A stretch of 62,249 nucleotides of DNA, counting the filler, from Sphacelaria rigidula (lineage: Eukaryota), in the NCBI GenBank assembly GCA_964200075.2. It is 2 parts of 2 records of this genome, joined end to end, with 100 filler letters (N's around TTAATTAATTAA, not from the genome) between each part and the next. Parts side by side here need not be neighbours in the genome. Positions count along the whole stretch, not along the records: positions 1 to 31,124 come from CAXNAA020000051.1; 1 more part is not named here. The stretch is one strand, 5' to 3'. A program made the position numbers and the translations under genes. A model generated the notes under the pieces. The model was not told the DNA's origin and did not search any database. It saw only the letters and a program-made list of their open reading frames with translations. This document shows, in pieces, positions 997 to 31,124 of the stretch (positions are counted from its first letter, which is position 1; the number at the start of each line of letters is the position of its first letter).

Positions 997-3900
997 GTGA
1001 GCCGTAGCGTGCCCCGTATGATATCGGTGGTAACTTCATCGTCAGCTTTTTACCGATATTTCAACACAGGTTTAGAGCTTCGCCGAAGATGCCTTCCGTG
1101 CAAGGTGAGGTTTCGCCCTCGCTACACTTGCCCACTCCCTTCAATTGCAGCGCCCGAGGGGTCCAATGAAAACATCTCGAATGGGCTAGGGTGGAAGGTT
1201 GAGGATATCGGATCCGGCAAATAGCGCCGTTTTGTGAGAAGAATCCAGCTGCCGTCGTTGAAAATGCAAGAACATGAGTGGCAAGGAGAAAACGCCGAGA
1301 GTCGACGCAGTGCGAGAGAGCTGATCCACTCCGCGGTGCCGAAAATGTCTGGTACGTACCGGGGGGCGGACCACATGCCCCCGTGGGGGGGAGGGGGGGT
1401 GTACTCATGATCTTGCATGCCGTAGTCTTATGACAATTGACTTTGCATCCCCACAAAGTCGGGACGGAGCACGCCGGGCTTTCGCCGGACCAGGCTCTCC
1501 AGGAGGAGTGGGGGGGGGTGTATTCATGATCATGCATGCCATAGTCATAAGACCATTGACCTCGCATCCCTACAAAGCCGGGACGGAGCACGCCGGGCTT
1601 TCGCCGGACCAGGCTCTCTAGGGGAGAGGGGGGTGATGATGGCTCTATAACTTGGATCTACGGTCTCGTCCTTACGAGGGGGGAGGGTTTCGAGTATGAC
1701 GAAAAACGAAATAGAATCCCGTCAATGTATTCTCGCGTATTTCGTTTCACGCTTTTGTTTGTCGCTTCGCTGGTCGTCCCGCACCAGATGCCGGTCAACC
1801 CAGCACAATATGCCGTGCGCTGTAGAGCCCTGTCTGTTGGTACAAAACAAGACGTATCCCCCCGATACGTTTTTACGTCTGACGTCGTGTCCTTGTCCAC
1901 GCAAGGCATCCGTAAATTTATCAACAAGTCAGGCGCGGGTGCTGACGGCAGTCGACACTTCGCGCGGCGAATCATCGACGAGCGTCCAATCAGAACGCAA
2001 GGATATTATAAACGCGGCGGTGTCGGTCGGTTTTCCCGCAACGGTCCTATGGCAAGAGACGATTGGAGGCGACACCACGGTAGTTCTCGACATTCAGGGA
2101 CTCAAGGTTAGCAGCACCATCGGTTCTAGTCGTGCATTAAGGCTCGAAAAGCGTGTTGTAGCTGTCGTTACCAATAATGGGAGGACTAGTCGCTGAGGCT
2201 TGAGTTGAACGGTGTCTCGAATCGATAGACCCAGCTGTTGCTCACAGAAAATGCTACTTACGACTACCCATGTTGTGGTGCGCGGGTGCTTTTCCCGACA
2301 CAATGTTTCTCAGCTGTTCTCACATATACACAGTATCTTGCACGTGCAGTCTGCAGTGTGCAGTCATAGAGGATAGAATGACATGCTGATGGTAGATGGG
2401 ACAGAGTGTCACCATGGCATCCCTTTTCCCTGTTGCTGGACGACCCAAGTGCGGAGGATGCGTATCCAGGGGTGAGGAGGCTCTCATGGCTGTGAAAGGA
2501 GTGAAGGGAGCATCGGTGAACCTTGCCGCGGGCACCGCCACAGTCACGCTTGCTGGTGAGGAGCGCCAGTAATTTACGAATTTGGAGAGCTGTTGGACTT
2601 CCCAAATTTTGGCGAATCAGATCAACTGAAGCATCCGATCGATCAAATGGATCGACCGATCAATCAATATTTGAATCTGACGCTACTTCCTAGGCAAAGG
2701 TCCTGCTTTGCTTCTTGTTCGACTGGTGTCGGAGCTGAATCAGATGCACTCTTGCTTGCGCCGCCCTCCACTTTTTTTTTGGCCCCGTCGTTGAAACGTC
2801 CGAAGGACGGTTTTACGGCAGCCAATGATTGAATGCAAACATCCGTACTAATCTGAAGGTACCTGAACACCAACCCACAACGTAGTCGTCATACTTTGAG
2901 GCATGCACGTATCCATGGATTCACCGCGAGCAACGAGAATCATGGATCGCGCACGCTGCTGATTCGAGGATGCACGAAACTTCGTGGGCGCTTTTGACTT
3001 GTCGCCGTACACTTTGCGTTGTTGCATGTTGCATGCCGTGGGAGAATATCTCTTGCGTTTCGACATCGCGTTTGTATCGGTAACTCGGCGACTTGACGGG
3101 GCATTTCCTGCTTTGGCACCAACTTGACTACATCCATTTGATGATTGATCGATTGATTGACGCACATGAACTCATTCGCTACGAATACAGCCGTGGTCAT
3201 TAGATGGACACATTCAAGATGGAGACTCTCGCTGAAGGGAAACTTGAGAGAGAAAAAATATGAGTAGAAAATGAGGAAACATGTATGTCTAATGCCGTGG
3301 TGTACGTGACTAGCAGCCAGCGACAGACTACGCCCGCACGGCTCGCTTCGCCCTTGCTTCAACTGTCCCGACATGGTTATCTGCTACCACCATCCTGGTT
3401 GCATAGTGAGAGCATATGCCGTTGCCGGCGACATACGAACGTCTTGACAGCAATAACCTAGACCCAAGCCTTAATAAGCAGGTGAAGCATTCTCGCCTAC
3501 ACAACCAACTACCGCGTTGTTGATTATGCTACCCTCATTTTTTGTTTTCTCTGTGTGTGTGTCTTTCTGTCACAAGGTAATGCGCCAGTACTGGAGGAGG
3601 GGAGTATCGAAGGAGCGCTTGTTGCTGCTCTCTCTGCTAGAGGATTTCCATCCAAAGTGCTTCGGGTTGGCACCGGCGAAAGCATCGATCGAACCGGCAC
3701 AACTGGAAAGGTTGGGAGGTAGGGATCCCGCTTGTTCTCCTTTCTGTTCCTCTCTTCTTTTTTTTTGCGGCGGAAATTTGATGAAATCATTCATCCAGGG
3801 ACCGATAGGATATCAGGATCAGCCACAGTTAAACCCGCAGGTATTTTCCGTGAAGAGTATGCTGCTTGCAGTGCATTTCGTTTTTTTTGCTTCCTGTATA

Positions 3901-6900
3901 CATCCCCTAACTTGTTTTGTGATTTAATCCTCGACTGGGCCGTTAGGCTTGGCGGGGGAGAGATGCGTACGATGTCGGGGTGCTTTGCTTTCCCGCGTGG
4001 ATGTAGCTTTTTGACGCTTGACAAAAAGAGTCACTTTTTGTGGCAACCGCGCATGCATGTGCCCTGTGCACAATTTCTACGAAGGTACAGCATGGCAGCG
4101 CGCTGTTTGATCTACTCCCCTTGGTTTCCACCTTCCCTTGTCCCGGCGATTCCTCCCCGCGCGGATTGCTCCACTTGGGCCTCATCAACTCATCATACCT
4201 GGGGCAGAATCACCCCGGCTGAACGTCACGAGAGAGAAGCGACCGAATCGCGAAGGCGTTTGCGCTGGAGTCTCGTCTTCCTGAGTTTATCTGCCACCGC
4301 GCACCTTGGACATCATGCGCACCACCTATTGCCGAGTTTTGCTCACTTGGGGAGTGGTATCGGCCAAGCGTTGCAGGTGTTGCCCACGGGGTGGGTAGAC
4401 TGGCTCCAGGCAGGCGTTGCGACGGTTGCTTTGGCAGGACCAGGTGAGGCCAAGACCGAAACACAGTATCAAATTATGTAGCTCTTTGGAAGTGTGGGTA
4501 AGAGCTATTACTGTATGCAATAGAAGGAAACAAGTGTACTTTTCTCTTGTGTTGTTCTATGTGACGGTGAGTATCGAGGCGCTTTTCATCGTCTGGGGAG
4601 TTGCAGACTGCGCCGAGGATATCGCGCTGTCGATATATGGAATTTGGTTTTATAGCCTTCGTGTTGGTTTTCGTTGTTGTTTTTTCTTGTGTGGGTGGCA
4701 GCTTATCTCGTATCGAGGTGTCACGAATTCTCTGTGCAGCGTACATGGACCTTTTATGGACACCGCAGCGTGGTACCATCTGTGTTCCCCCGGTGACATA
4801 ATATGTCAGAGTTTGGTTATTTCGTCTTGCAGTAGCGTGCTTATGTTTGTGATTCCCGTACTCACGAAGTAGGTCAAGTTCCTCTGTGCAGAAGGAGCTG
4901 AGAGCGCGTCAAGTTCTATGCATTGCTCAAGAACGCCTGGACGCATGACGCTGTCTACATGGGAATCGCCCAAACCCTTCAATCACTACGGCAGGATTGA
5001 GCCTGATCAGATCGGGAATGTACAAGATACGAAGATTTTCTCCTGACATGGACTCTCTGGTGGCCACCGGAGTTCTCGCGGTGTACGTTTCGTCGATGGT
5101 GGCTCTTTTGAAACCGTCGTTGGGGCTCACGGCAACGTTCCACGAACCGGTATTTACCGAGGCAGAAGGTTGCCTATGGTGTGTGTGCGATATTCGTTTT
5201 TTCTGTACTTTTCATACAAAATAAAATCATCACGAGGAAATGACAGAGCTGTCCCAAGAGGTCGACAGGGAAGAAACTGCATTCACTCTAGTGTCTTGTG
5301 AATACATCGTCGGAAGAGCAACGCCGAATTTTCCTGCAATCTTACCGCCAGGTACTGCCGATGTACTTGTACAGTTGATTGTTGATTGTTGTTGATTGTT
5401 GATTGTTGTTGTTGTTGTTGTTGTTGTTGTTGTTGTTGATGATGATGATGACGATGATGATGATGATGATGATGATGATGATGATGATGATGATGATGAT
5501 GATGATGATGATGCCTTTACATTAAATAAACGCTCCGATCTCTGCGCAGTACCTTTTAACCTCGTACTAGGCCTCTGATGCGAACGCCTTCCATGGTCAG
5601 AGGCTGAATACCCAAAATAAGGTACAAGGAAATATAGTCCCAGACGATGCGGTGCCGCAGGGCAAACAGACCAAAATGACAGAAGATAACACGCTTGTTC
5701 GGGCTTACCGTGCCTGGTGGCTGCTTCATTCACCAACCAGTATGTCAAACATCTGTTGTGGTCGATCCAACAGAAAGAAGCGCAGGAAGCGCTGTCGAGG
5801 GTAGTCCCTTTTGTACGCTCTGCCTCGTGGCAGCTGCTGCAACTGCTATATGACACCGACGCTTTCGTCTCTCCGGCAACACCCACTGCATACCGTCAAG
5901 GTGATGCTGCTTGGGGCCGTGCTGCTTGGGAGATCCCTCGAAGCGAGACAGCGCCTCAAGGCAGCAAGGGGACTACAGGGACTCTTTGACGTGCGGCCTC
6001 ACCAGGTGAAGTGCTGATTTTACCATATCCCGTCATGCCGCTCCCGTGAAACACTGCGCTATGCCGGGAAGTTCTTCACGCGTCGTTATTCCTGCCGATT
6101 GTCATGCTTGCTTCGTTTCTACGCTCGTCCAGACAGAAAGTAGAGTAGTACGCACTTTTTTGTGTCTCACTGCGACCGAACGTAGCTGGTGTTCGTGTAT
6201 CGCGTCACAAGAGAGCAAGTTCACCACGGAAGAATGATCGAGCTACCTGCACACGTTGATCGGCTCTGCACGAGGCTCACAACATAAAGCTCCACCGTAT
6301 GCGCTTCGTGTGATCCCTCACGCAAATCACGATTGAAAGGGAAATGAGATTGCTGTTCGCCCCGGACTGCTTGGCGTTCCATTATCTTCTTTTTTCCCCC
6401 GCCCGTTTTCTTCGACTTATTCCATGTTTCAGGCGCGCCGCGTAGACTCAGCGGGCCGGGTATCCGCAGTTCCAACTGGCAGCGTACTTGTCGGTGAGGC
6501 ACAGTATCTGTCTTTGATGCGGTTGTAAAACGATGCGGGAACGTACAGCCGTTGGGTTATATGAATTGCCGTGGAACTGAGATATTCAATAATTCAAGGC
6601 GACACTTCCAGTTGTATTGTTACTCTAGCCACGAACGAATCCACGGTTCGGACGAATACAATTGTGATTCGACTCATATTTGACATTCGTACGAACCAAT
6701 CATACGATTCGCACACCAGCTGTGATTCGTACATGTATTGGGTTCGTGATTCGTGCGACACTACTTGACGTGTACACATTCACAGTCAGTGATTCGTGCG
6801 GTACACCGACGAATGTACACGTTTCCTACCTTCCGTGTATACGGCATGAATCAAAGGTGGATATTTCCCCCCCTCCGTCTGTATGGTAATGAATCATAGG

Positions 6901-31011: not shown

Positions 31012-31057
31012 TGTACTCATGATCATGCTTGCCATAGTCATCAGACCATTGACCTCG
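31012..31057 (-). mobile_element. 46-bp 5'-truncated C-tailed retroposon copy
   Basis: Perfect 13-bp direct repeat CACGCTGGGGGGG at 30999-31011 and 31058-31070. Confidence 0.82.
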
Positions 31058-31124
31058 CACGCTGGGGGGGGGGGGCGTAACCGTTTTTGGCTTTCCTTAG
31101 GACTTTGGCGATTTACAGCAGAAC

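Follow-up and report, generated by a model that had tools for sequence, protein, structure and literature searches.

A 62,249-nt stretch of Sphacelaria rigidula DNA (GCA_964200075.2; two joined records, filler included; hereafter, the window) carries six copies of a short, C-tailed repeat that all end at one fixed point. We think it probable that this very abundant family is a non-autonomous retroposon of the non-long-terminal-repeat (non-LTR) type, copied by target-primed reverse transcription (TPRT) in G tracts, with a long interspersed nuclear element (LINE) of the RTE-X clade as its most likely driver. An earlier note on this DNA, made from the sequence alone, had also read the copies as products of TPRT, and the fixed 3′ end, the C tail, the variable 5′ ends, the lack of coding capacity and the duplications that start with the tail base support that reading.

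Searching the whole window by blastn with the long copies as query returns exactly six family members (E-values from 1e-92 to 1e-9). In a multiple alignment they share, in register, the terminus ...GATCATGAGTACA with minor variants (...GA(G/A)(T/C)ACA), after which the element strand enters a C-rich run in 6/6 copies, so the common end and C-rich run reported in the earlier note are borne out by both methods. The blastn matches, tails included, span 1385-1497(-), 1505-1616(-), 12248-12437(+), 12450-13013(+), 23140-23650(+) and 31005-31059(-). Element bodies, delimited by eye (Table 1), measure 46, 100, 100, 173, 494 and 549 nt and differ at their 5′ ends. The loci in the note are therefore right, except that two of its starts (1393 and 1510) fall a few bases inside the tails, and its variable 5′ ends stand, with a longest copy of 549 bp instead of ~560 bp. 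The copies are dispersed in both orientations with different flanks (blastn), as two head-to-tail pairs, 1400-1499 with 1519-1618 (-) and 12249-12421 with 12450-12998 (+), and as two single copies, 23140-23633 (+) and 31012-31057 (-).

Truncation at the 5′ end, the source proposed earlier for the variable ends, does not by itself account for copy A. This copy is an internal-deletion derivative in which query positions 243-305 are joined directly to the 3′ module (12260-12322 matches 12692-12754, and 12317-12436 matches the 3′ module; blastn). The first ~40 nt of copy B, the longest member, duplicate the start of its own 3′ module (12458-12483 vs 12919-12944, 92% identity). Joints from 12369/12372 to 12488-12493 recur in contigs of three public runs (13 contigs in X1, 13 in X2 and 4 in X5; runs introduced below), indicating that the module-like head belongs regularly to the family instead of being a third fragment. 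Copies 1 and 2 have the same 5′ end and, flanks included, form a 119-bp tandem repeat (2.0 copies, 89% matches; Tandem Repeats Finder).

Table 1 Copies, tails, candidate target duplications and sister-family units in the window
Feature	Coordinates	Strand	Evidence
C-rich tail after copy 1 (element strand: C7TC7), including the 3′ copy of the weak flanking repeat	1385-1399	-	reading, alignment
Copy 1, 100-nt 3′ module only	1400-1499	-	blastn, alignment
Inter-copy spacer: C9 tail of copy 2 plus 10 nt (ACTCCTCCTG, element strand)	1500-1518	-	reading
Copy 2, 100-nt 3′ module, 5′ end as in copy 1	1519-1618	-	blastn, Tandem Repeats Finder
8-nt repeat flanking pair 1400-1618	shared with 1619-1634	-	151/2000 shuffles, not above chance
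5′ copy of 11-nt target duplication CCCCACCTCCT around the whole pair A+B	12238-12248	+	shuffle test
11-nt duplication CCCCACCTCCT of pair 12249-12998	12238-12248 / 13011-13021	+	7/2000 shuffles; mismatched loci at most 9 nt
Copy A, 5′-truncated with internal deletion, body piece fused to 3′ module	12249-12421	+	blastn
Tail of copy A: A, C14, then TTCCCCTCCCCCA	12422-12449	+	reading
12-nt repeat TCCCCTCCCCCA of copy B alone	12438-12449 / 13004-13015	+	30/2000 shuffles; mismatched loci reach 10 nt
Copy B, longest, 549 bp	12450-12998	+	blastn, contig joints for head
C-rich tail following copy B, with the 3′ copy of each candidate duplication at 13004-13015 and 13011-13021	12999-13021	+	reading, shuffle test
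5′ copy of 10-nt repeat CCTCCCCCAC	23130-23139	+	shuffle test
10-nt repeat CCTCCCCCAC of copy C (23140-23633)	23130-23139 / 23647-23656	+	35/2000 shuffles
Copy C, 494 bp, lacking ~50 nt of the 5′ head; 74% identity to copy B	23140-23633	+	blastn
C-rich tail and 3′ repeat copy (23647-23656)	23634-23656	+	reading
Sister-family 3′-end fragment, beside a G6 run and the copy D insertion site	30958-30999	-	alignment
3′ copy (element strand) of 13-nt target duplication CCCCCCCAGCGTG	30999-31011	-	shuffle test
13-nt duplication CCCCCCCAGCGTG of copy D (31012-31057)	30999-31011 / 31058-31070	-	0/2000 shuffles; mismatched loci at most 8 nt
Copy D, 46 nt, strongly 5′-truncated	31012-31057	-	blastn, alignment
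5′ copy of 13-nt target duplication; G run on to 31075	31058-31070	-	reading
Sister family: two head-to-tail ~204-bp units with a C17 tail (32298-32314) between	32119-32509	-	blast/alignment

For target duplications, the 25 nt upstream of every 5′ end were compared with the 35 nt that follow the terminal ...ACA, and the results were set against 2000 shuffles of the same flanks and against the flanks of other loci. Two of the four loci clearly carry solid duplications, of 13 nt around copy D and of 11 nt around the pair A+B. The 13-nt duplication is perfect and includes five non-C bases, and because the G run goes beyond it, the target of copy D was a longer G/C tract. All five duplications tested (13, 11, 12, 10 and 8 nt) are C-rich, and flanks from different loci share up to 10 nt. 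Since every flank is C-rich, the 10-nt and 8-nt repeats are compatible with target duplication but uninformative; an unrelated locus has a 3′ flank that matches just as well in the case of the 10-nt repeat of copy C. Thus, the three flanking repeats of 10-13 nt described in the earlier note are all present in the sequence, whereas only the 13-mer and the 11-mer exceed chance. The 12-nt repeat around copy B, formed by the last 12 nt of the copy A tail, fits a nested insertion into that tail.

The abundance of the family and the nature of its tail were examined in Logan contigs of four public runs, placed on 12100-13150 at 80% likeness. Three runs (X1, X2 and X5) are labelled as the same organism, and a fourth (X12) as a different one. 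Contigs on the element number 58,969 of 4,559,685 in X1, 48,401 of 4,333,584 in X2 and 17,590 of 2,902,564 in X5; X12 gives 112,358 of 51,734,260, none of which covers the unique flanks. The element is very abundant: in X1 the word depth is 25.7 on the unique flank vs element bins summing to 0.04-7.6 million, a sign of very high abundance and not a copy number. Past the shared end, the loose-end consensus of X1 reads ...ATCATGAGTACA followed by 16 C (385 contigs, agreement 0.66), and a second one reads GTACA followed by 24 C (530 contigs, agreement 0.55). X2 yields a similar consensus, and none appears for X5 or X12 among the matches listed. As the contig consensus runs into 16-24 C, the C run is a property of the family and not of the six loci alone. 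Scanning metagenomes for a 17-nt end motif produced 32 loci; by blastn, 0/32 extend into the rest of the element, and we take them as chance matches. Viral contigs yielded 0 matches to a 20-nt core motif. Directly downstream of the pair 12249-12998, the segment 13022-13150 has a summed X1 contig depth of 94-1,034 vs 25.7 for the upstream flank, and is probably itself a low-copy repeat.

The family has no coding capacity. No terminal inverted repeats (TIRs) were found for the copies and no open reading frame (ORF) across them matches a Pfam family, in agreement with the earlier note, which had seen neither TIRs nor an ORF. A translated copy compared with a protein collection (longer proteins only) gave one unnamed 188-aa match and no named brown-algal protein. 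Across the window, no reverse transcriptase (RT) or endonuclease domain was detected in 605 stop-to-stop ORFs, comprising 76 of the 85 that reach 120 aa and every N-free ORF of 55-119 aa (529 in number). The nine omitted ORFs either run through the regions of N and G runs (20.5-21.0 kb and 32.0-32.8 kb) or share sequence with a separately scanned repeat-protein ORF described below. A long copy with an RT ORF and the same 3′ sequence, which the earlier note suggested looking for, is thus not among the 605 ORFs of the window.

Neither ARAGORN (no tRNA) nor Rfam reveals the origin of the 5′ head. Rfam gives nothing at gathering score in the window, including no hammerhead or other ribozyme family, and its single weak match at E<=1 is mir-70 (21 bits vs a cut-off of 90). 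The family consequently does not qualify as a short interspersed nuclear element in the strict sense, with an RNA polymerase III head derived from tRNA, 5S or 7SL RNA and internal promoter boxes, as no tRNA and no Rfam match at gathering score is found. Penelope-like elements carry hammerhead ribozyme motifs in their pseudo-LTRs (pLTRs); a Penelope-like element of the Chlamys type does not fit a (C)n tail and a window free of ribozyme families. An LTR retrotransposon or solo LTR, for which duplications of 4-6 bp and a polypurine tract belonging to the element would be expected, is at odds with duplications of 10-13 nt that include a purine run, and with the lack of a second LTR or of gag/pol nearby. 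Helitrons and miniature inverted-repeat transposable elements are rejected on the duplications, which include the G run, and on the absence of TIRs. A structured recognition hairpin in the 3′ module is not supported (z = -0.36; compensatory change in 1/30 pairs).

We propose the following route of insertion. The element RNA would end in ...GAUCAUGAGUACA and then a run of C, and a LINE-encoded endonuclease would nick one strand within a run of G; the G-rich 3′ end thus exposed could pair with the C tail of the RNA and prime reverse transcription. Synthesis of complementary DNA from the fixed 3′ end would often abort, leaving 5′-truncated copies, and a staggered second nick 10-13 nt away would produce duplications whose element-strand sequence begins with C's. 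Every copy would add a new C tract, and later copies could land in older tails. From the features above we infer an RNA intermediate, priming by G:C pairing and the likely LINE partner. On the analogy of Ectocarpus, an RTE-X-clade LINE with a single endonuclease-RT (EN-RT) ORF would most likely be the driver; the main family would be the counterpart of RTEX-N1_Ec32, and a 204-bp sister family that of RTEX-N2_Ec32. The earlier note had left the mobilising RT/endonuclease unnamed, and analogy now makes an RTE-X LINE the most likely candidate.

It is unlikely that TPRT here is driven by some other RT, be it from another LINE clade, a Penelope-like element or an enzyme of an undescribed kind. Such a driver would sit well with the 0/605 ORFs that represent an RTE-X partner in the window, and the RTE-X assignment itself draws only on traits shared with Ectocarpus families in a supplementary table. 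In that library, however, RTE elements end in (CAA)n, CRE elements in (CA)n and Chlamys elements in (A)n, and only RTE-X joins (C)n ends to C-rich target-site duplications (TSDs) (PMC12477816); (C)n ends are exclusive to RTE-X among the LINE and Penelope-like rows consulted (PMC12477816, supplementary file 1). RTE-X LINEs are also reported to have been active recently in the kelp Saccharina (PMC4421812). A Penelope-like driver in particular finds no hammerhead or other Rfam match in the window.

We give still less credit, and regard as very unlikely, the idea that the RNA has no C tail and that the endonuclease simply cuts in G/C tracts, all adjoining C's being target. The C7 after ...GTACA at copy D does lie entirely within the 13-nt duplication, and all four loci are C-rich on both sides. 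By contrast, the C14 after copy A is missing from the 5′ target copy and is therefore a true tail, more than duplicated target. Moreover, the consensus of 16-24 C over hundreds of contigs is longer than any duplication in the window, and the Ectocarpus curators give (C)n as the 3′ end of consensus elements in the rows consulted (PMC12477816). Highly improbable is an origin without any retroposon, whether as an LTR that starts with TGTACTCATGATC... right after a polypurine tract (on the opposite strand a purine run is indeed followed by TG..., as where a polypurine tract meets a 3′ LTR) or as a DNA-level satellite or segmental duplication (1400-1618 being a 119-bp tandem repeat), given that the G run at copy D lies inside the duplication, with a 46-nt insert between the 13-nt duplications, that LTR elements give duplications of 4-5 bp (4 and 5 bp in the Ectocarpus Gypsy and Copia rows consulted, PMC12477816), that neither a matching second LTR nor an internal coding region is found close to the copies, and that the copies are dispersed in both orientations with different flanks.

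Several points weigh against a TPRT retroposon with an RTE-X partner. No autonomous LINE with the family 3′ end was found in the window. At two of the four loci the duplications (10 and 8 nt) are no better than the C-rich flanks of unrelated loci, and the pair 1400-1618 is equally explained by DNA-level tandem duplication of one insertion. Homology to RTEX-N1_Ec32 and the RTE-X partnership are argued from common traits, not from sequence. Finally, the folding of the 3′ module is not unusually stable (z = -0.36; 71/200 shuffles fold as well) and compensatory change affects 1 of 30 predicted pairs. With no fold stability and almost no covariation, the conserved 3′ core points to sequence constraint and not to a demonstrated structure.

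The head-to-tail pairs could have arisen in three ways: insertion into the tail of an older copy, a template switch between two RNAs in one event, or unequal crossing-over between flanking repeats. The nested 12-nt repeat around copy B favours the first. Unequal crossing-over is plausible for the pair 1400-1618 and excluded for the pair 12249-12998, because the two members of the latter differ in structure.

The host of these insertions is a brown alga. ORFs in the window carry pieces of a heavy-metal (copper) P-type ATPase, one exon of which is 82% identical to its Pylaiella homologue, 81% to that of Ectocarpus and 77% to those of Laminaria and Scytosiphon; its seven best matches comprise six named Phaeophyceae proteins (73-82% identity) and one unnamed protein, from which we assign the host. 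A search for the dinoflagellate spliced leader gave no match. Sixteen exon matches to the Pylaiella ATPase lie on the plus strand between 868 and 24928 (tblastn). Three of the four insertion loci fall in introns of this gene, with splice sites read by eye. The pair 1400-1618 is bracketed by exon matches that end at 1002 and begin at 1903, the pair 12249-12998 begins ~85 nt after an exon ending near 12164, and the tail of copy C is directly upstream of the CAG at 23658-23660, before an exon match from 23673. C-tailed elements are probably among the commonest sequences of this genome, and sit inside introns of ordinary genes. Residues 719-808 and 415-432 of the Pylaiella homologue are unmatched, pointing to further exons or gaps in 6011-11913 and 17117-23673.

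At least four families with (C)n ends appear to be present in the window. The sister family has in common with the main one the core GGGATGCG.GGTCAA.GGTCA.A.GACT...GGCA.GCA. A third candidate, on the minus strand, is marked by G runs of 22 nt (20596-20617) and 52 nt (20759-20810), each followed by related sequence ...GCATTCCA.G.AAAA...; across 20596-20810 its minus-strand end would read ...GGAATGC... and then (C)n, and a 10-N assembly gap separates the two runs. For the fourth, on the minus strand at 32510-32698, G runs of 21 nt (32510-32530) and 28 nt (32671-32698) are each followed by CTTTG.GGGCCC.GG..., ~160 bp apart and beside a 10-N gap (32612-32621). C-tract targeting in this genome thus appears to involve several families, and most long G/C runs in the window appear to be element tails. 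Long G/C runs coincide with assembly gaps in the window.

Other features of the window are recorded here in their own right. About 50 nt from copy D, 31125-31224 consists of two 44-N runs around TTAATTAATTAA, with stops in all frames, and resembles an artificial scaffold-join linker. An intact 711-aa ORF at 41389-43524 (+) consists of repeats of the Chlamydia polymorphic membrane protein (PMP) type (Pfam PF02415, E = 5.6e-25), with an 81-84-nt periodicity in its DNA; this protein type is unusual in a eukaryote, and its look-alikes in a protein atlas are bacterial and archaeal beta-helix proteins. A dispersed repeat occurs as two direct ~480-bp copies (19282-19766 and 36358-36840, 76-81% identity) and a 61-nt piece (59074-59134). 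Inverted copies of a ~230-bp repeat at 3-228 and 35160-35388, 35 kb apart and 77-87% complementary, probably represent another transposable element family. On the minus strand, 59686-60177 has a weak tyrosine-recombinase match (Phage_integrase, E = 0.0019, 18.4 bits vs a cut-off of 27.1) beside long ORFs without any family at 60178-61709; the whole of 59686-61709 may be the remnant of a DIRS/Ngaro-like or Crypton-like element, or an inserted virus. ACGT-rich arrays of ~70-110-nt repeats (CGTTACGTTCACGTT...), with a 192-bp tandem duplication (91% identity), lie at 54122-54535 and 58291-58674.

The results extend (C)n-tailed retroposons, so far the subject of notes in the Ectocarpus library only, to another brown alga with a much larger repeat load. 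For annotation, they imply that long G/C homopolymer runs in brown-algal assemblies may largely be element tails; for transposon biology, they offer a natural case for testing how far tail-target base pairing alone sets the targets of LINEs. A broader proposal, which we put forward tentatively and consider somewhat doubtful, is that a whole guild of brown-algal retroposons is targeted mainly by pairing of C tail and G tract, and that its insertions would seed arrays, genome share and intron polypyrimidine tracts. Were this so, each insertion would be a new landing site, and self-seeded head-to-tail arrays, a large share of the genome and polypyrimidine tracts next to splice sites would follow. 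In the literature available to us, this mode is noted only in a curators' table and not analysed in print. No new kind of element is revealed.

Our search found no paper on the C tail or C-tract targeting of such elements, although it may miss the spelling poly(C), and a search for RTE-X in brown algae gave only PMC12477816. In the main text of that paper, 'C-rich' occurs 0 times and C tails or targeting are not discussed. The accessible parts of the accounts of Saccharina japonica RTEX-1 (PMC4421812) and of Blepharisma do not mention tails, and those of the Phaeoexplorer preprint are silent on such elements. Three element motifs searched as text had no literature match.

The closest known systems are therefore the catalogued elements of Ectocarpus, and a family of this kind, of which the earlier note knew no description, is already on record: the Ectocarpus library lists RTE-X LINEs with (C)n ends and C-rich TSDs (PMC12477816). 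Its supplementary table describes RTEX-1_Ec32 as 'single EN-RT ORF; (C)n 3'' with TSD 'C-rich', and RTEX-2_Ec32 as '(C)n termini/TSD'. The entry for RTEX-N1_Ec32 (PMC12477816) gives a non-autonomous element of 607 bp that 'can be present in tandem', with TSD 'C-rich' and '60 bp 3' end 83% RTEX-1_Ec32/RTEX-2_Ec32'. According to the same source, this family has about 6,000 copies or more, a 3′ end conserved with autonomous RTE-X LINEs and a 5′ origin that its curators could not determine; it is the top single family in Ectocarpus by abundance, with an intron-rich distribution. RTEX-N2_Ec32 is non-autonomous as well, 188 bp long, with another body and a similar 3′ tail (PMC12477816).

Compared by these listed traits, not by sequence, the family resembles RTEX-N1_Ec32 as a non-autonomous element of ~600 bp (607 there; 549 plus tail here) in a brown alga, with a 5′ head of obscure origin, C-rich TSDs, tandem occurrence and a place in introns. 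It differs in the tens of thousands of distinct contigs found here, seemingly far more than ~6,000 copies, and in a head that duplicates ~40 nt from the start of the family's own 3′ module, on which the Ectocarpus notes consulted are silent. The sister family at 32119-32509 corresponds by description to RTEX-N2_Ec32, a short second family with a different body and a common 3′ core, with a ~204-bp unit vs 188 bp. RTEX-1_Ec32, RTEX-2_Ec32 and Saccharina japonica RTEX-1 (PMC4421812), with (C)n 3′ ends and C-rich TSDs, are the presumed type of driver, acting through the ~60-bp 3′ end; at 5.5-5.9 kb and with one EN-RT ORF each, they have no equivalent in the window. RTE elements with (CAA)n and CRE elements with (CA)n ends would follow the same logic of tail-target pairing, with TSDs that start with the tail base and 5′-truncated copies, whereas the present family has a C homopolymer as its tail and G/C tracts as its targets.

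Taken trait by trait, the match to the RTEX-N type comprises the (C)n 3′ end, C-rich duplications, tandem pairs, a brown-algal host and a short non-coding element (longest copy 549 bp) whose head has no tRNA or Rfam match. L1 and Alu, with poly(A) tails and T-rich nick sites, obey the same tail-pairing logic. The family is thus best read as one more representative of a brown-algal retroposon type that has already been catalogued, and not as a new class.

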